IMG/VR virus record: IMGVR_UViG_3300028364_000013
Length of the DNA: 64,000 nucleotides
Direction: 5' to 3' (one strand)
From: a virus
Taxonomy: Duplodnaviria > Caudoviricetes
How positions within the stretch are numbered: the stretch's first letter is position 1; each line of letters starts with the position of its first letter. Below the pieces are notes generated by a model. It ran no database searches. It was not told the DNA's origin and saw only the letters and a list, made by a program, of their open reading frames with translations. Shown piece after piece: positions 5,371 through 35,997 of this stretch. The translations under genes were made by a program, and so were the position numbers.

Positions 5371-6138
5371 TTACCACCAATCCCAAAGGCAACTGTGCTT
5401 GTGGTTGTATCTGAATTCTACGAAGTCATCGCAGTAATCAGAAAGCCAACATCCCCAGTCATCGTTGATGTCATCATACTTCGCAAACATCATGCTCATG
5501 TTCTTTTTGAGCGCTTGCTTGTTGTGATGTCTATCGGCTCTGTTGTAGAGTTGAACCATGTCTTTGCTTGGTCCACTTCTCCATCCGTGCTTTTTCTTTT
5601 CATTAAAAAATGTAGTTTCTAAAGCAGCGTCAATTTCAGCCTCTTCTTGCTTAAGCACTTCATCAATCACTTTGTAGTGAGTCTTGTAGTGCTTAGACTT
5701 TTTTAGCTTAAAGTAGTACTCAGGTAAATTAACCTTGTAAAACTTTTTAACACTTCCCCAGTAAACTCTGTCTTCTGATGGGGCGTATACGAAGAATCTT
5801 TTGCACCACGGAAGAAGTCTTTCATAAGTACCTTCGTCAATTAATTTGAAGTAAGGCTTAATGTCAACTTCTCTTTTTTGCTTATAATCATATATGGTAA
5901 AAGACTTGTCTCTGCACCAAACTGATTTACCAAAGTGATAAATTAGATTCTCAATATCCTCTCCATCTTTACTTCTGGCAATGTCTGCTCTAAGCTTCCA
6001 TTCGCCATCGTAACCATCGTGGATTGGTTTATCAAGTGGTTTGTAACCAAGAGCTCTTTGAGCTTCCCAGTTTTCGTTTAACTCATTTTCCTTTCGGAGA
6101 TAAGCCTTGAACTTTTCAGTTCTCTCATTTCTTTTCAT
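5371..6138 (-). CDS. Hypothetical protein
   Basis: 255-aa ORF. Confidence 0.75.
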   Translation of the reverse strand: MKRNERTEKFKAYLRKENELNENWEAQRALGYKPLDKPIHDGYDGEWKLRADIARSKDGEDIENLIYHFGKSVWCRDKSFTIYDYKQKREVDIKPYFKLIDEGTYERLLPWCKRFFVYAPSEDRVYWGSVKKFYKVNLPEYYFKLKKSKHYKTHYKVIDEVLKQEEAEIDAALETTFFNEKKKHGWRSGPSKDMVQLYNRADRHHNKQALKKNMSMMFAKYDDINDDWGCWLSDYCDDFVEFRYNHKHSCLWDWW

Positions 6139-6248
6139 GCTCTGTGTTTTTCTAAGTGAATACTTAGAACACGGAGCCCTTTCTTGAAATTTTTGTCATT
6201 TTTTTGTCGCTTGTTTATATATACGTAAAATTATGTAAAATGTTGCCT

Positions 6249-7218: not shown

Positions 7219-8337
7219 CTAATGTACTACTTTAGCGATTGCAGGATTGTTCCTAATCCCGAAATTCATTATATTTTTACCTGCATTAACATCTCTATCT
7301 TCCGAATGTCCACACTTATCACAATTATATGTCCTATCTGAAAGTTTAAGGTCTTTCTTGATATTCCCACAAACATTGCACAATTTACTACTTGGTTCAA
7401 ATCTTCCGATTACAACAAGGTTTTTACCTTGCCATTCAGATTTATATTCAAGCATTGTTCTTAATTGCCCCCAACCCATATCAGATATAGCCTTTGCTAA
7501 ACAATGGTTTTTAACCATATTAGAAACTGCTAAATCCTCAATACAAATTGTTTCATAAGTATCCACTAATTCAGTAGATATTTTATGCAAATAGTCAGTC
7601 CTTTGGTTACGGATTTTCTCTTGCAATAATGCTACTTTTAATTTTTGTTTTTCTCTATTACTACTTCCTTTTACTTTTCTTGCTAAACTTCTTTGTTCAA
7701 CTCTCAGCCTTATTTGTTGTGATTTGAAAAAGTTTTTATTTTCATACACAACTCCATCAGAAGTGATAGCTAAATCTTTAATCCCAAAATCAATTCCTAC
7801 ACTTGTACTTGTTGTAATTATTTTCTTTTTAGGTATTTCTTTATCATTATCAACTAAAATAGATACAAAATATTTACCTGTTACAGTCTTAGTTAATGTT
7901 ACTCTTTTTGGTATTCCTTTAAATTCTCTATGATAATCAATAGCAACTTCTTTTAATTTAGGAAGTTTAATAACATTGTCCTTAAATGATATTTCAAAAC
8001 CTTGCGGAAATGTAATTGATTGTTTAGAATATCTATTTTTATATTTAGGAAATTGCCCCCTGCCTTTAAAAAAGTTTTGATATGCAGTATCTAAATTAAT
8101 TAAACTATGTTGCAAAATTTGGCTTGGGCATTCCTTTATGTAATCAAATTCTTTTTTTAATTCGGGTAATTGTTTAATTAAATCATACTTAGATATTGAT
8201 TTTTTGTTTGAAGCATACGCAGTAGTCTTAGTTTCTAACCCTAAGTTAAAAACCAATCTATTAACTCCAAAGTACCGTTGTAATTGGTCTTTTTGAGTTT
8301 CCGTTGGGAAAATTCTGTATTTATATCCTTTTAACAT
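7219..8337 (-). CDS. tnpB: TnpB RNA-guided endonuclease
   Basis: N-terminal YKYRIFPT HTH, RuvC motifs GIDFGIK / IEDL / DRDVNA, zinc finger CNVC..CDKC. Confidence 0.95.
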   Translation of the reverse strand: MLKGYKYRIFPTETQKDQLQRYFGVNRLVFNLGLETKTTAYASNKKSISKYDLIKQLPELKKEFDYIKECPSQILQHSLINLDTAYQNFFKGRGQFPKYKNRYSKQSITFPQGFEISFKDNVIKLPKLKEVAIDYHREFKGIPKRVTLTKTVTGKYFVSILVDNDKEIPKKKIITTSTSVGIDFGIKDLAITSDGVVYENKNFFKSQQIRLRVEQRSLARKVKGSSNREKQKLKVALLQEKIRNQRTDYLHKISTELVDTYETICIEDLAVSNMVKNHCLAKAISDMGWGQLRTMLEYKSEWQGKNLVVIGRFEPSSKLCNVCGNIKKDLKLSDRTYNCDKCGHSEDRDVNAGKNIMNFGIRNNPAIAKVVH

Positions 8338-10283: not shown

Positions 10284-11831
10284 TTATTTTGTTTCTAATT
10301 TTATAAATGGTTTAATCTTTTCACACTGTTTTAGTGCGACTCTAATTTCTTCAAATTTTCCAGGAATTACTGGATAGTAGAGTTCATTTATTTTCGTAAT
10401 GGCATAGTGAATCTCTAGGACTAGCGGCCAACCTTTCTCAAGGTCTTTCCAAGGTTCTGCATCACCAATTCTCTTATTAAGTTCTTTTACAAGCTTGTTT
10501 GTCTCTTGAAGGGCGTCTGAAATTAGATAGTTGTTCCAAAGTGTTTTTATATTGTCAATTCTCTGGTCAAGTCCAACACACCATTTTTCTTCAGACACAT
10601 AAGAGTGGTCTAATTCAATATTTGGGTCATCCACGAACTTGTCGAGAGTCTTACTAGCCAATACGGTGACTCTGGTGACTAAATTACCATAATCATCAGC
10701 AAGGTCATTGTTGTATTTAGCTACAAGCAACTCTTCATCCCAAGATGAGTTTCCATAAGTTCTTAAACCCGCAAGCGCATAGTAACGAACTGCATCAACT
10801 CCATATTTTTTAACTTGGTCAATAGGGTCAACAACATTTCCAACAGACTTACTCATCTTACGTCCATCTTTATCCAAAATAGTTCCATGAACAAGTAATT
10901 TATCTGTTTTTTTGATTCCTGCAGACATTAATAGTCCCTGAAATATTACAGACTGGAATTTAAGGTTATCTGGGCCACAAATCTGAATTACTTCAGACTC
11001 ATTCCACCTTTCTTCAAAGTCATGGTCGTCATGAAGGTCATTAGGGTAGTATCCTGCAGCAAATATGTAGTTTAACAAAGCATCAAACCATACATATATG
11101 ATTTGGTCTTCATCTCCTGGAACTGGGATTCCCCAACTAACAGTTTCTTTAACTCTGGATATAGAAATGTCCTGAAGATTCTCTATAATCTTATCGAATT
11201 CTCCAATCTTATTCTTTGGTTCAAAAAATTTGTCATTTACATGCAGCCACTGAAGAAACCTTTCTCTATATTTAGAAAGTTTGAAGAAATAGTTTTCTTC
11301 TTCAACTTCTTGAAGCTCTGTTGTTGGGTGGTCTGGACAAACTTTTCTTTTGTGTATATGCACCTTAGGATATTCAAGAGCAGGGTCAACTCCTCCAATA
11401 ATTCTATCCTCAAGTTCTCTATCGCTTTTGAATGACTCGCATCCAACACAATAGGTTCCAGTGTATTTCTTTTTGTAGATGTCGCCTCTATTGAAGGCTT
11501 CAACCCAGAACTGCTGAACATTCACATAATGCTCTGAGTCAGATGTTCTGTAAAATGAATCCCAGCTATCAATCTTAAGTTCTTTAATGAAATCTTCCCA
11601 ACTGTAAAGAAGGTCATCAACATATGCTTGAGGAGAAATACCCTTAGCTTCAGCTGCTTGCTGAATCTTTAAGCCATGTTCATCAAGACCAATATTGAAA
11701 AATACATTATCACCACGATATTTGAAATATCTCACCAAAGCATCAGCTATGATAAATTCAAAAGCGTGTCCTATGTGCGGATTTGAGTTCGCATATGGCA
11801 ATGTGGTCGTTATGTATTTATTTTTATTCAT
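10284..11831 (-). CDS. metG: Methionyl-tRNA synthetase
   Basis: HIGH and KMSKS motifs, YVWFDAL, anticodon-binding helical C-terminus. Confidence 0.95.
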   Translation of the reverse strand: MNKNKYITTTLPYANSNPHIGHAFEFIIADALVRYFKYRGDNVFFNIGLDEHGLKIQQAAEAKGISPQAYVDDLLYSWEDFIKELKIDSWDSFYRTSDSEHYVNVQQFWVEAFNRGDIYKKKYTGTYCVGCESFKSDRELEDRIIGGVDPALEYPKVHIHKRKVCPDHPTTELQEVEEENYFFKLSKYRERFLQWLHVNDKFFEPKNKIGEFDKIIENLQDISISRVKETVSWGIPVPGDEDQIIYVWFDALLNYIFAAGYYPNDLHDDHDFEERWNESEVIQICGPDNLKFQSVIFQGLLMSAGIKKTDKLLVHGTILDKDGRKMSKSVGNVVDPIDQVKKYGVDAVRYYALAGLRTYGNSSWDEELLVAKYNNDLADDYGNLVTRVTVLASKTLDKFVDDPNIELDHSYVSEEKWCVGLDQRIDNIKTLWNNYLISDALQETNKLVKELNKRIGDAEPWKDLEKGWPLVLEIHYAITKINELYYPVIPGKFEEIRVALKQCEKIKPFIKLETK

Positions 11832-13663: not shown

Positions 13664-14077
13664 CTAATTCCTCTTCTTATTTTTATTATTTCTATATGTA
13701 ATGTGGTCTACAAAACCTTTTTCAGTATGATAACCCCACTCTTTTTCTTTTCTCTTTCCGACAATTGCCAACGTGATTACTTTCTTTGACACAACCTGTC
13801 TGATGCAGTGGAATCTATCCGAATTTCGGTATCCCATGTTTAAAAACGTTCTAACCTTATGAGTTTTATCCTTCCCGTTCTTCATCAAGAGCTCCTCTAC
13901 ATAAGAGCCCCACAATATCATCGTCCAAATACTCCAAGGATGATTGTGAAGATGGTCATCCTGGTCTTCCTTGTAAATACCATGGATGTACACACAAAAC
14001 CATAGAGTCTTTAACAACTGCCATCTCCTGAAGTGCAATTCTCCAGATTTGCTTATTATTTCTTTTACTAAATTCAT
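13664..14077 (-). CDS. Cupin-like protein
   Basis: HLHNHPW ... GSYVEE ... RFHCI cupin-type pattern. Confidence 0.65.
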   Translation of the reverse strand: MNLVKEIISKSGELHFRRWQLLKTLWFCVYIHGIYKEDQDDHLHNHPWSIWTMILWGSYVEELLMKNGKDKTHKVRTFLNMGYRNSDRFHCIRQVVSKKVITLAIVGKRKEKEWGYHTEKGFVDHITYRNNKNKKRN

Positions 14078-14100
14078 AATTCAAATATTAAAAATAAATA

Positions 14101-14328
14101 AAGGCTCATAACCAGGTTCCTGTCGTGGGTTATCATTTGTCTATTGTCCTCTACCCGTACCTCACTGGAGCAGCTCACCCTCCTAAGTACTGTTTGAGTT
14201 TCATCTCGGCAGGAATTACACTTATGGTGGTACAATAACGCTTTTCAGCTCCCACACCGCCTAAACTGTGATGGCCTGAGTTTGTCCTCTCATCCCAACA
14301 AGTGGGGTAGAGCGATAACCTCGCCTTT
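14101..14328 (-). ncRNA. rnpB: Miniature RNase P RNA (~228 nt)
   Basis: P1 AAGGC/GCCTT; P2 GGTTATC/GATAACC; P4 AAC[T]CAGG/CCTGGTT with bulged U; 3' AATGATAACCCACGACAGGAACCTGGTTAT resembles the conserved CR-IV/CR-V. Confidence 0.8.
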
Positions 14329-15151
14329 ATTTATATTCTTTCAACACTGGATACATTGCAAAAGCTTCTGCATCTGTTGTTGGCATCTTGTGGTAACGAA
14401 TGTAAATCTTTTTCTTATAATTCTCTTCATAAGCTTCATGACCCTCTTCATCCTCTTTAACATATCTCAAATTAGGGTCGTAATCTGGAGCAGTAAACTC
14501 AAGACTATACTCACACCCTCTATACTTGTATTTTTTCCAACCAAGTTCTTCAAGCAAATTTAAGAAAAATTCTTGATTAAGAAAATTCTCTTTTGATTTC
14601 ATCGCTTCTTCATGCTTTTTTTTGCTCCAGTGTCCACCTTCTGTACTCCAAATGTGTCCACCATTATGTTTGATGTCGCTGTTGAAGTCTTCTTTAATTT
14701 CATATAAATACCAAGCAACTGGAACTGATTCATGCGAAAGTGTTTTGAATATAGCGAAGTTTCCAAGTTCGTCTACCCAATGTAATTTCTTCATGTGAGA
14801 AGTGGTGTATCCAGAATAAAATTCACAAAACATGTCAACAAGGTCTTGGTTGTAATCGTTTACATCCAAACCTCTCTTCATGTCATCAAGCATATCTTGC
14901 AGATATGATATTTCTCCTTTTTTAAATTTTATTTCATCTCTAACTTCCTCTTTATAGTCAACAACAATCTCTGTCTGCTTTCTCTCAGCAAGAGTAAGCT
15001 CCTGGCGAAGTCTTTTGACCTCATCAGTAGCATCCTGATATTCAGGCAAGAATTTATAACCATCAAGAATCTCTTTCAAGTCTTCTCTCTCCTTGGCTAT
15101 CATTCTTTTTATTTCTGCTTGAGTATGTGACATTTTAATATATTGGTTCAA
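14327..15151 (-). CDS. Hypothetical coiled-coil protein
   Basis: 274-aa ORF. Confidence 0.75.
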   Translation of the reverse strand: MNQYIKMSHTQAEIKRMIAKEREDLKEILDGYKFLPEYQDATDEVKRLRQELTLAERKQTEIVVDYKEEVRDEIKFKKGEISYLQDMLDDMKRGLDVNDYNQDLVDMFCEFYSGYTTSHMKKLHWVDELGNFAIFKTLSHESVPVAWYLYEIKEDFNSDIKHNGGHIWSTEGGHWSKKKHEEAMKSKENFLNQEFFLNLLEELGWKKYKYRGCEYSLEFTAPDYDPNLRYVKEDEEGHEAYEENYKKKIYIRYHKMPTTDAEAFAMYPVLKEYK

Positions 15152-19791: not shown

Positions 19792-21219
19792 TTAGTATTT
19801 CCTTTTTGAAGGGTCGTCATCAGCCATCCTAACCACTTGTGGTGTGAATGTACCAAGAATATCAATCAAGTTGTTTTGCGCTTCCATTACTTTCGTAATA
19901 TCTTTATAAGCATATGGAGCCTCATCGAGACCGCCACCAACAAGTGTTACCTTGTTATCTTTAAGAAGCTTAGTAACTGAGCTTTGAGTAAACGAGTTTC
20001 TCGCCACCTTTCTTGACATAGCTCTACCAGCACCGTGAGAAGCTGAAGATATTGAGTCAACAACACCTCTTCCTCTAACAATGAACCCTGGAGAAACCAT
20101 AGAACCTGGGATTATACCAAGGACACCTTTTCCAGCAGGAGTTGCTCCCTTACGGTGAACAATAACCTCTTTACCATCAATGATTTCCTTCCAAGCAAAG
20201 TTGTGGTGATTTTCAATCTTAGCCACTGGGTTTAACTTTAGCTCTTTGGTAATTCTTCTGTGAATCTCGTTGTGACAAGCTTGCGCATAATCACCAGCCA
20301 TATTCATAGCTATCCAGTATTCCACACCAGCTTCCGAATTCATATCAAGCCACGCAAGGTGTTGAGCTGCCTTTGGAAGAGGTGTTGTGTTCATAGCAAT
20401 TTCATGATACTTGTTGGCAAGTGTAGCACCGAACCCTCTTGAACCAGAGTGAGTTAATACACCAACATATTCTCCAACCTCAAGACCGAAGTCGTTAGTT
20501 GGGTCAGTTATCTTAACTATACCAAAGTCCACAAAGTGATTTCCACCTCCTGAAGTTCCAAGTTGTTTCCAAGCTTTGTCCTTAAGAGCTTTTATGTTTG
20601 GTATTTCATTGAACTCTTTCCTATCAAGGAATTCGTGTTCAGTTAATTTACCATCATTCTCAACTCCCATTCCGAAGAATGACTCAGACTTAAGAATGTT
20701 TTCAATCTTATCTCTATTTCCATCAATGTATGAACCACCTTTATCGTAGATGGTCATGTGCATTCTACAACCTATGTCAACACCAACTGCATATGGAATA
20801 ATAGCATTATCTGTAGCAAGGACACCTCCAATTGGAAGTCCATAACCTTGGTGAGCATCTGGCATAAGAGCTGCAGCAACAGAGATTGGCAATCTTGCAG
20901 CAAGTTTTATTTGCTCGTGAGCGCCTTCTTCTATGTTGTCTCCACCATATACAGTATATGGCACACCAACTTCTTTAAGTGGGATTTCAATCACTTCCTC
21001 TTCTACAGCTGGAATCAATAATTCAGCGATTGGCCCAAGAACAATGTCTTCAACATAATCTTCTGGAGTCAAAAGTACAGCCTTTAAAATATCACGTACA
21101 GTATCAAGGTCACTGTGCTTGTAAGCTTTTGTTACAATCTTCAATGTTACACCCATAACTTTACCTGGCTCCATTCCGAACGCCATAAGGTCTTTGCCTG
21201 TTATCTTTAACTTTACCAT
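19792..21219 (-). CDS. rtcB: RtcB RNA ligase (3'-phosphate/5'-OH, tRNA repair)
   Basis: MPDAHQGYGLPIGG, VGVDIGC, LGTSGGGNHF, HRKGAT, SHGAGR, LDEAPYAYK. Confidence 0.95.
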   Translation of the reverse strand: MVKLKITGKDLMAFGMEPGKVMGVTLKIVTKAYKHSDLDTVRDILKAVLLTPEDYVEDIVLGPIAELLIPAVEEEVIEIPLKEVGVPYTVYGGDNIEEGAHEQIKLAARLPISVAAALMPDAHQGYGLPIGGVLATDNAIIPYAVGVDIGCRMHMTIYDKGGSYIDGNRDKIENILKSESFFGMGVENDGKLTEHEFLDRKEFNEIPNIKALKDKAWKQLGTSGGGNHFVDFGIVKITDPTNDFGLEVGEYVGVLTHSGSRGFGATLANKYHEIAMNTTPLPKAAQHLAWLDMNSEAGVEYWIAMNMAGDYAQACHNEIHRRITKELKLNPVAKIENHHNFAWKEIIDGKEVIVHRKGATPAGKGVLGIIPGSMVSPGFIVRGRGVVDSISSASHGAGRAMSRKVARNSFTQSSVTKLLKDNKVTLVGGGLDEAPYAYKDITKVMEAQNNLIDILGTFTPQVVRMADDDPSKRKY

Positions 21220-24468: not shown

Positions 24469-24523
24469 ATTAATAAATATGATAAAAAAAGCAAAAACAA
24501 GATTTCGAGCCAGTATGATTTTG

Positions 24524-24595
24524 AGACAGCGAAGGGATTCAAACCCTTATAACCACACTTTGCAGGTGCGTACCTTATCAATCGGCCACGCTGTC
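24524..24595 (-). tRNA. tRNA-Cys(GCA)
   Basis: CGCAC-CTGCAAA-GTGTG, U73. Confidence 0.88.
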
Positions 24596-24608
24596 TTATA
24601 TTTTATTG

Positions 24609-24693
24609 AGGTCAGGGAGGGATTCAAACCCCCGATGGGCTTGCGCCTACAGATTTGCAGTCTGTCGTCTTCAATCACTCGAACCACCCGACC
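24609..24693 (-). tRNA. tRNA-Cys(GCA) with long variable arm
   Basis: ACAGA-CTGCAAA-TCTGT, variable hairpin GGC-GCAA-GCC, U73. Confidence 0.85.
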
Positions 24694-26225: not shown

Positions 26226-26323
26226 TGGACAATACGAGAATCGAACTCGTATCTCCAGTTTGCGCTATCCTGTGTGGTTGCACTTCATAGCCTTCACCGA
26301 TTTACCAATTAATCTAATTGCCC
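26226..26323 (-). ncRNA. tRNA-like RNA with expanded, non-canonical anticodon region
   Basis: Acceptor GGGCAAT/ATTGTCC, D-arm and T-arm intact; ~45-nt insert with GCTAT/ATAGC pairing. Confidence 0.6.
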
Positions 26324-33989: not shown

Positions 33990-34945
33990 TTAAAAGCCTG
34001 AGTTTACAGCATTTATTAGCGTCCTTTAATGACCTTACCCACATCATCTTGCGGTTAATCAATGTATCCACGCACCCTTTCAGGTGGTATACGCCAGTCT
34101 CGATACCTATGGGGTATCATTCCTATCGTGCAATCTAACTCTGTATTTTCCACCTACACTATCTTGCCAGACATATGCGAGCTTTCGTTACAATCGACAC
34201 CCACCTTGCGAGGATGAATGACTCCCTGATTCTGCCGAAGCATCCAGGGTCTGAGAGACCTTTTAATATACACGCCCATGAGACTTTCACTTTTTTTCTG
34301 TTTATAGTAAAAACCAGCCATGCCAAGGCTAATATATACTGCATGAGATATACAGTACGAAGAGACGTGCCCACAGGAGTGGTTTCATAACTTTTTGGTT
34401 ACAAAATGCCACACGCCTCTCTGTTAGTCTATGCTGACCAACAATTAAACCCGAATTACTTTCTACGAATAGTTAAGTAACCAAATCCAAATGAGATGAA
34501 GCCCTTGCGTTTCTTACACGCTCGAACAACACAACTAAGCTTTTCCTTTTCATCAGCCGAAGCCAACTTTTTTTGCAAAATTTCTAATGCTCAACTACCA
34601 TTTTTAATCTCATGATAGTTTACCTTGTCCAGGTAAGTACTCACTTATTGCATAGGTGTCCAACAGAATAAATTCTGAAGGCGAGGGTGACACCCCCTTT
34701 TATAGCTTGTTACCAAACTTTATCTTCCCACAAGGGGCTTGCAATGATTTTCATCACCACGAGACTCTACACAGCCTCAAAATGATTGTTATTTGAATTG
34801 TAAAAGCTGGTTCATGTTACATAACCAATTTAAAAGCGAAGGACTCTGCTATATTTCATACAGTTGAATGTTTGTCCCATTCTCACTTTCCTCACTTACT
34901 CTTACTGTCGAATGGACCTAAACATTTAGACCAATAACAATTTTT
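33990..34945 (-). ncRNA. Large structured non-coding RNA candidate (~950 nt, possibly GOLLD-like)
   Basis: No credible ORF; own TAGCTTTG promoter at ~34985 and a terminator; many hairpins (TTACCT/AGGTAA, AACTATCAT/ATGGTAGTT, TACTGTAT/ATGCAGTA, GATACC/GGTATC, TTCG loops). Confidence 0.65.
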
Positions 34946-35690: not shown

Positions 35691-35741
35691 AACCTATCTG
35701 TTTAAAGATAAATAGTACAAAAAAGTACAAAATCGACTAAG

Positions 35742-35814
35742 GGAATCCATACGGGATTCGAACCCGTGCCTCCTGCCGAAAGGCAAGCGCTCTATCCGCT
35801 GAGCTAATGGACAC
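35742..35814 (-). ncRNA. tRNA-like RNA, Glu(TTC)-like with 6-nt anticodon loop
   Basis: CTTGC-CTTTCG-GCAGG; D- and T-arms canonical; imperfect acceptor. Confidence 0.55.
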
Positions 35815-35897: not shown

Positions 35898-35997
35898 TGG
35901 CGAAGGGAGGATTCGAAACCTCCGACCCCCAATGCTGTCCATTCTTTCACAAGAACAACTAACACACTGGTGCTCTGACCAACTGAGCTACCTCGCC
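35898..35997 (-). ncRNA. tRNA-like RNA with elongated anticodon arm capped by a GTGA tetraloop
   Basis: Acceptor GGCGAGG/CTTCGCC; CCAGTG..TTCTT-GTGA-AAGAA..CATTGG. Confidence 0.65.

Follow-up and report, generated by a model that had tools for sequence, protein, structure and literature searches.

A miniature RNase P RNA in huge phages, structurally conserved and probably a working ribozyme

RNase P RNA is regarded as a housekeeping ribozyme of cells. Among its bacterial forms the type B RNA is without P16 and P17 and has P5.1, P10.1 and P15.1. The P6 interaction is also missing from type B (RF00011; PMC5839562). The archaeal type T RNAs of Pyrobaculum and other Thermoproteaceae (RF02357) retain the catalytic domain and P6 and have lost P18 and most of the specificity domain (PMC3579882; PMC5839562); they are built on an archaeal-type core with a 3-bp P2 and a 2-nt P5/P15 linker, and they work with archaeal proteins (PMC3579882). 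A bacterial counterpart was engineered in the laboratory by deletion. This E. coli catalytic domain, Eco CP RPR, is a type A RNA without specificity domain that is active with or without the C5 protein, and it requires a P6-type contact for efficiency; P18 proved dispensable once the specificity domain was gone, and the construct was approximately 500-fold less efficient than the full RNA (PMC5839562). Reduced RNAs are found in cells as well. In CPR/Patescibacteria and in Mycoplasma fermentans RNase P RNAs lack P12-P14 and P18 and score below the Rfam thresholds, and about two thirds of the CPR RNAs are without the CCA-binding motif (PMC8172020). In a full-text literature search we found no description of an RNase P RNA encoded by a phage or virus, and the term RNase P is absent from the huge-phage paper (PMC7162821). 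The RNA family reported here is thus apparently unpublished.

The DNA analysed, hereafter the window, is a stretch of 64,000 nucleotides belonging to a 195-kb IMG/VR virus record, which encodes a large terminase. Its protein set was found also on a 364-kb contig, so that the 195-kb record is a fragment of a huge lake-water phage. All 37 tRNA genes of the window and the miniature RNase P RNA are located on the minus strand; an earlier note, written from the sequence alone, had proposed an RNase P catalytic core at this place and had left its strand unstated. The gene and its surroundings are the following, in coordinates of the window:

7219-8337 (-): TnpB/IS605 OrfB-type gene with a Cas12f-like TNB domain, within the translation-gene island
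10284-11831: methionyl-tRNA synthetase (MetRS)
13664-14077 (-): downstream ORF P0001, a phage-specific cupin of 137 aa, starting 15 nt past the RNA
14093-14331 (-): the whole miniature RNase P RNA gene, 239 nt, with a P1-to-P1 span of 14097-14331 (235 nt)
14327-15151 (-): upstream ORF P0002, 274 aa, no family, with its stop codon in P1 (RNA nt 3-5)
19792-21219 (-): RtcB tRNA ligase
33995-34421 (-): GOLLD RNA, full length, among the tRNA arrays (E 8.5e-46; score 169 bits, cut-off 150)

A permissive Rfam scan of window positions 13950-14450, a 501-nt search, aligned the minus strand of 14093-14331 with model positions 1-367 of the type A model RF00010 at 52.2 bits and an E-value of 2.9e-15, which corresponds to approximately 4e-13 when rescaled to the full 64-kb window. 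RF00010 was the best match of the window within the RNase P clan. The score is about half of the curated gathering score of this model (100 bits), and the default scan therefore misses the phage RNA: run over the whole window, it reported only 37 tRNAs and the GOLLD RNA, and no RNase P. The blocks matched in the alignment were GAGGA, the P4 strands, CGGGUAG, AGA-AAUG and ACAG-AA, and the positions deleted were about 110 of the specificity domain and a 25-position segment at P18. With a model of our own (R1) the window RNA scored 305 bits, and it is present as a single copy in the 195-kb record. Minimum free energy folding gave a structure no better than that of shuffled sequences (z -0.28), a measure that is uninformative for a pseudoknotted RNA.

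RNA positions are counted from window position 14331 (RNA position 1), 5' to 3' on the minus strand. The helices were placed by hand and checked on one relative. In the order of the RNA the strands are:

14323-14331 (-): P1 5' strand, RNA 1-9, paired with 14097-14105 (RNA 227-235), 9 bp
14314-14320 (-): P2 5' strand, RNA 12-18, paired with 14128-14134 (RNA 198-204), 7 bp
14289-14312 (-): P3 hairpin, RNA 20-43
14275-14288 (-): J3/4 and P4 5' strand, RNA 44-57, with the bulged U53 at window position 14279
14264-14268 (-): 5' strand of the P6 pseudoknot, RNA 64-68, paired with the L17 loop at 14171-14175 (RNA 157-161)
14206-14263 (-): specificity-domain stub, RNA 69-126, 58 nt in place of about 110 model positions
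14149-14198 (-): P15-P16-P17 arm, RNA 134-183, with the L15 GGU at 14153-14155
14135-14148 (-): P18 site and J18/2, conserved region IV, AUAGACAAAUG
14110-14127 (-): J2/4 and P4 3' strand, RNA 205-222, conserved region V ACAG-AA, CCUGGUU

P4 is formed by A50 A51 C52 [U53] C54 A55 G56 G57 with C216-U222 and comprises 7 bp. Compared with the RF00010 consensus, AAGUCCGG/CCGGCUU, a G-C pair beside the bulge is turned to C-G and a C-G pair is replaced by A-U. J2/4 and the 3' strand of P4 align with the ACAGAACCCGGCUUA block of RF00010, and the pairing of the P4 strands was confirmed. P5 pairs 59-62 with 127-130 and is joined to P15 by a linker of 3 nt, AAA. In the following arm P15 consists of 134-136/181-183, P16 of 142-147/170-175 and P17 of 149-152/162-165, and the L15 loop GGGUA occupies 176-180. 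P18 is absent, and 3 nt stand where the model has its 25-position segment. The AUAGA-AAAUG block of J18/2 is conserved among the relatives, although the last search pattern had fixed part of it.

Most of what the earlier note had read from the letters was borne out by this analysis. The catalytic core is supported by the full-length RF00010 alignment, obtained in the covariance-model search that the note had named as a check (E 2.9e-15, though below the gathering cut-off of 100 bits), and by the covariation seen among relatives. P1 and P2 close correctly with 9 and 7 bp, and the P4 quoted as AAC[U]CAGG/CCUGGUU with the bulged U kept is exactly the helix placed here. The description of P4 as compensated also holds, as two pairs are altered on both strands relative to the RF00010 consensus and P4 covaries in relatives. 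The specificity domain is reduced as had been supposed, with a 58-nt stub left after the deletion of about 110 model positions. The element is short as claimed; its length is not the approximately 228 nt given there, since the model match spans 239 nt and the distance from P1 to P1 is 235 nt. Nor is the stretch intergenic in the strict sense, as the upstream ORF has its stop codon within P1.

With bacterial type A RNase P RNA (E. coli M1 RNA, rnpB; RF00010) the phage RNA shares P1-P5, the bulged U of P4, the P6 pseudoknot, P15-P16-P17 with a GGGUA loop for pairing to the CCA of tRNAs, and the core strands GAGGA, AGA-AAUG and ACAG-AA. We found the end-to-end alignment, P4 with its bulged U between conserved regions I and V, P1, P2, P3 and P5, and P6 together with the L15 GGU as in type A; the Rfam threshold, P18 and the specificity domain are where the phage RNA falls outside. 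It has 239 nt compared to a model of 367 positions, lacks P18, has a 58-nt stub for P7-P14, scores at half of the Rfam cut-off and has no adjacent or detectable rnpA. The type B form does not apply, as P6, P16 and P17 are present and covarying. The likeness to type T extends to the retained catalytic domain and P6 and to the loss of P18 and most of the specificity domain. Unlike in type T, the core of the phage RNA is of the bacterial type A, its P2 comprises 7 bp and its linker 3 nt. Because core, P2, linker and the RF00010 match all differ from type T, we regard the reduction as convergent, analogous and not homologous. Judged from sequence and predicted structure, the phage RNA is a descendant of bacterial type A RNase P RNA. 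Compared to Eco CP RPR, a laboratory deletion, it is a naturally selected gene with a short stub and with covariation. The CPR and Mycoplasma fermentans RNAs share the missing P12-P14 and P18 and the low Rfam scores; they belong to cells, where they are essential, and have kept a larger part of the specificity domain, and the CCA-binding motif, absent from about two thirds of the CPR RNAs, is invariant in the phage family.

The stub is a single irregular arm with a P7-like stem carrying a 1-nt bulge, a 4-bp P10/11-like stem and a small hairpin with a GAAA loop at 14240-14249; these helix names were assigned by position only. The P7-like pair 73/122 covaries between C-G and A-U, and the P10/11-like stem is invariant. 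In the close clade the hairpin has a GNRA loop (GAAA, GCAA or GAGA) on a covarying stem, and in the relative L248 the loop is non-GNRA. P8, P9, P13 and P14 have no counterpart in the stub, and the deleted model positions include the elbow-binding platform formed by conserved regions II and III. Because distant relatives have only a simple hairpin in the place of the specificity domain, the window copy represents an intermediate stage of the reduction.

We gathered 16 distinct relatives, some of which were reached only via a neighbouring protein gene. Their phage contigs span 59-595 kb and come from several habitats, namely lakes, groundwater and soil. With a two-part pattern that demanded both strands of P4, one viral contig (L001) and eight more metagenome loci were obtained. 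Starting from homologs of the downstream cupin, a route that makes no use of the RNA itself, we reached L257 and L259, which belong to the close clade, and L248. The L248 RNA has 225 nt and is 76% identical over aligned columns; searched against the RNase P clan it matched RF00373 over the full length with 31 bits (E 3e-7). A pattern independent of P4 gave eight further loci (L266-L273) on contigs of up to 425 kb, corresponding to five distinct sequences of 202-229 nt and 62-68% identity. A blastn search with one distant relative led to LR756511.1, a published phage genome of 595 kb, which has a copy at approximately 224226-224447 (-) (L275 2872-3093) that scored 59 bits by our own model (E 1e-15). 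LR756511.1 is an uncultured phage genome without any annotation, and the RNA is unannotated there.

Other searches returned less. Two 14-mer scans of viral contigs gave approximately 236 loci, all of which were chance matches by nhmmer except L001. By blastn against GenBank phages nothing was found for the window RNA, for the 6 kb around it or for the L272 RNA, and related-locus searches with P0001, P0002 and the alignment A3 gave nothing beyond the L001 contig. The two-part P4 pattern had no match in 185,579 species genomes; this narrow pattern excludes only near-identical cellular or prophage copies. Two loci with a 282-nt RNA (L253 and L254) scored only 26 bits with our own model and had no Rfam match. 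We tentatively consider this RNA, on the basis of its sequence, as a remote cousin, and it enters none of the counts.

To a reader concerned with coding potential we note that indels of 1, 3, 4 and 5 nt occur among the relatives, which rules out a coding region. The RNA is 87% (L001) and 76% (L248) identical over aligned columns, compared to 37% and 31% for the upstream protein. In an alignment of 11 sequences 98.1% of the pair cells were paired against 36-46% with slid partners, and 25 of 63 pairs were changed on both sides. The core helices of all 16 sequences were paired in 96.5% of the cells against 34-44% with slid partners, with changes on both sides in 32 of 49 pairs. The covariation score of the 16 sequences was 0.447 compared to 0.138 for shuffles and no shuffle reached any of the five measures, a control that overstates significance as the sequences are phylogenetically related. 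Helix by helix, this alignment showed changes on both sides in 8/9 pairs of P1, 4/7 of P2, 4/4 of P5 and 4/6 of P16. P15 occurs as CUC/GAG, CGC/GCG, CUU/AAG and CGA/UCG among the relatives, and the P3 hairpin is retained despite differing sequence and length, down to 4 bp and a tetraloop in L248 and L269. Four of the five P6 pairs were changed on both sides (e.g. CAGUU/AGCUG, UUGCU/AGCAA, CUGCU/AGCAG); this count is unbiased, because P6 lies outside the model that made the alignments.

For P4 the way of collection has to be considered, since in the close clade this helix was fixed by the search pattern, as were conserved regions IV and V in L266-L273. The pairs 51/221, 52/220 and 57/216 are changed on both sides, and in the 11-sequence alignment the three double changes all came from one sequence. 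Covariation in P4 is also seen in relatives whose collection did not depend on this helix (L248, L259, L266-L270 and L275), for example ACU[U]CAGC/GUUGAGU in L248, AAC[U]CAGCC/GGCUGGUU in L266 and AG[U]UCGAC/GUCGGCU in L275. Invariant in 16 of 16 sequences were GAGGA (RNA 43-47), U53, C54, A55 and G56, A132 and A133 of J5/15, and in L15 the AAA together with G177, G178 and U179. In type A enzymes these positions build the active site and hold the substrate -1 nucleotide and the 3' CCA (PMC11143913). We concluded that the RNA is homologous to RNase P RNA, has its architecture and is under purifying selection for its structure.

The flanking proteins offered no obvious partner for the RNA. P0001 corresponds to phrog_4786 and has a cupin fold, and P0002 had no Pfam, PHROG or fold match; with a cupin on one side, no recognisable fold or family on the other, and no sign of a link to RNA, both were rejected as protein partners. 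The stop codon of P0002 in P1 recurs in L001 and L248. A P0001 homolog adjoins the RNA in the window, in L242, L244, L245, L248, L257 and L259, and in the tentative L253. R1 had no match within the flanks covered of the P0001-homolog loci L249-L252, L255, L256 and L261-L264, and an RF00010 scan of L249, L251, L255, L261 and L263 found nothing. As no match was obtained at these loci, the linkage of the cupin and RNA genes is limited to part of the clade. L245 is an 82-kb contig of ERZ1292623 whose cupin homolog P0004 (longest contig 82,120 bp) is labelled by NCBI as belonging to a 'Nanoarchaeota archaeon' MAG; the contig is probably that of a phage, mis-binned into an archaeal MAG.

RnpA (PF00825) was not found in the 195-kb record, which is part of a phage of approximately 364 kb, nor in five further phage records that carry the RNA, two of which are a 97%-complete genome of 425 kb and the 595-kb LR756511.1. 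As no rnpA was detected in these six records, a hybrid holoenzyme of host RnpA and phage RNA is the simplest model. The 195-kb record, as part of the approximately 364-kb phage, also gave no match to the PolyA_pol domain of CCA-adding enzymes (PF01743) or to RNB (PF00773). The RtcB ligase is extended by about 100 aa at its N-terminus, where residues 4-46 weakly match tRNA nucleotidyltransferase domain 2 (PF13735, E 3e-4).

No promoter or terminator of its own was predicted for the window RNA. Given this and the upstream stop codon in P1, the RNA would need read-through and processing of its ends. No RNA-seq run was listed among the sequencing runs that contain the sequence. In two relatives (L238 and L243) CGTATAAT stands in place of the upstream ORF and ends 9 nt before P1. 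The motif (T)GCGTATAAT / GTCGTATAAT has five occurrences on the coding strand of the window and none on the other, with approximately one expected per strand; four of these CGTATAAT motifs lie outside tRNA genes on the minus strand (4729, 23319, 52021 and 52996) and the fifth lies inside a tRNA gene. From its sequence and distribution the motif is probably a promoter of this phage group. An attempt to derive the host from the promoter motif TAnnTTTG was given up, as 5 of 69 ORF starts carried it against 2.7 expected and a random maximum of 8, which is not significant.

A different arrangement was found in L269, L271 and L272, where the RNA is part of a tRNA array and P1 is followed by UAAU and then directly by G+1 of a tRNA-Gly. 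With such a gap, cleavage of the tRNA-Gly by RNase P would create the 3' end of the ribozyme. In L272 (4289-4565, equal to L269 and L271) the order is the RNA, 4 nt and the tRNA-Gly, within a 17-gene tRNA array of the 425-kb phage, and a ribozyme of this type would form part of the 5' leader of the tRNA-Gly. The L266 contig, which carries a miniature RNase P RNA, also has a tRNA with a CUA anticodon at 6112-6186 (-), an amber suppressor that ARAGORN assigned as Pyl and that may point to stop-codon recoding.

We consider it likely, from sequence and conservation, that the gene is a working one for a minimal RNase P ribozyme that trims phage pre-tRNAs together with host RnpA. For its expression, catalysis, protein partner and substrates we infer the following course. 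The RNA would be transcribed from the phage genome, by read-through from the upstream ORF in the window phage, behind a promoter-like motif in two relatives and as part of a tRNA precursor in others. It would then fold, most likely bind the host RnpA (C5) protein and remove the 5' leaders of the 37 or more phage pre-tRNAs, and it may recognise its substrates by the acceptor stem, the -1/+1 positions and the 3' CCA, and not by the elbow. P6 is kept and P18 dropped as in the minimal constructs of the laboratory, which argues for selection for catalysis. Since the E. coli catalytic domain is approximately 500-fold less efficient, activity in vivo would depend on the protein partner.

A rather unlikely extension of this reading is that the phages own a self-sufficient RNase P. 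The RNA would function without host RnpA, alone or with an unrecognised phage protein such as the 274-aa ORF, would take over 5' maturation of tRNAs independently of the elbow, and in some relatives would release itself from the tRNA precursor. If true, this would be the first virus-owned ribozyme system of the RNase P class and a naturally minimised bacterial RNase P.

We hold it improbable that an RNase P-type ribozyme was retargeted to acceptor-stem-like hairpins outside tRNAs, in polycistronic mRNAs or non-coding RNAs, with the tRNAs left to the host enzyme. Such a role would agree with the reduction of the specificity domain to a stub and with the position of the gene between two protein genes, approximately 10 kb from the nearest tRNA genes; catalytic-domain-only constructs do cleave model hairpin substrates (PMC5839562), and the same genome has a GOLLD RNA and many structured leaders. 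The distant family members point the other way, as they are placed inside tRNA arrays and abut a tRNA, and so do the invariant CCA-binding GGU and J5/15 adenines; furthermore no alternative substrate was identified.

Very improbable in our view is a decoy or competitor, which need not be catalytic and which would bind host RnpA or pre-tRNAs and so starve or re-programme the host RNase P. In bacterial holoenzymes RnpA is bound by P2/P3, J18/2 and J2/4. These regions are kept in the phage RNA, as expected for a decoy, and no phage rnpA was found in the six records; a decoy would hardly explain that elements which serve catalysis and substrate docking, and have no obvious part in protein binding (the bulged U of P4, the L15 GGU, P6 and P15-P17), are invariant or covarying, and the dozens of tRNA genes of the phage call for an increase in RNase P activity and not for a decrease. 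A decaying remnant of a captured host rnpB, or as a variant a cis-acting structure of the flanking mRNAs that resembles RNase P RNA, would fit the sub-threshold Rfam score, the large deletions and the overlap with the upstream stop codon, and this reading, to which we give hardly any weight, is as a decaying relic essentially excluded by the covariation seen in the sequences (both sides changed in 32/49 core pairs with 96.5% of the cells still paired). Also against it are an RNA far better conserved than the neighbouring proteins, its retention in phages of several habitats on contigs of 59-595 kb and the absence of the narrow two-part pattern from all 185,579 species genomes.

The likely minimal ribozyme can be viewed against the tRNAs of the phage. 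The earlier note had suggested an enzyme tuned to tRNAs that lack CCA or have odd elbows. That most tRNAs lack an encoded CCA was correct (34/37). The claim of several odd elbows was weak, since 33 of 37 have the standard GTTC in the T-loop and it differs in 4/37 only. The tuning itself was not supported, as the CCA-pairing L15 GGU is invariant in 16/16 sequences and most elbows are ordinary. Loss of the elbow reader would tolerate CCA-less or odd-elbow tRNAs. In cyanobacteria and chloroplasts the CCA-binding motif tends to be missing and pre-tRNAs may lack CCA (PMC8172020). For the T4 Pro-Ser tRNA precursor efficient processing by RNase P prefers a CCA at the 3' end (PMC11143913), and by analogy the order of events could be CCA before RNase P in this phage as well. 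Among the few elbows that are truly odd are those of two tRNA-Cys genes at 24523-24595 and 24608-24693 (-), whose T-loops read GTTTGAA for GTTCGAA and whose D-loops are unusual. Two tRNA matches from Rfam, of 98 nt at 26226-26323 and of 100 nt at 35898-35997 (-), not called by ARAGORN, are possibly intron-containing or long-arm tRNAs, and the tRNA at 35741-35813 (-) has an undetermined anticodon.

The family is unannotated in published huge phages such as LR756511.1 and escapes the standard Rfam thresholds, so that a dedicated covariance model would improve phage annotation. A virus copy of RNase P RNA would add a 5'-maturation enzyme to the translation parts known from huge phages, namely tRNAs, synthetases and ligases. 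It would also be a natural experiment in the minimising of a bacterial ribozyme, which has arrived at the same design as the laboratory deletions and the archaeal type T, with P6 kept and P18 and the elbow reader dropped. This would allow direct tests of what part of RNase P is required in vivo and of a possible relaxation of substrate choice once elbow reading is lost.
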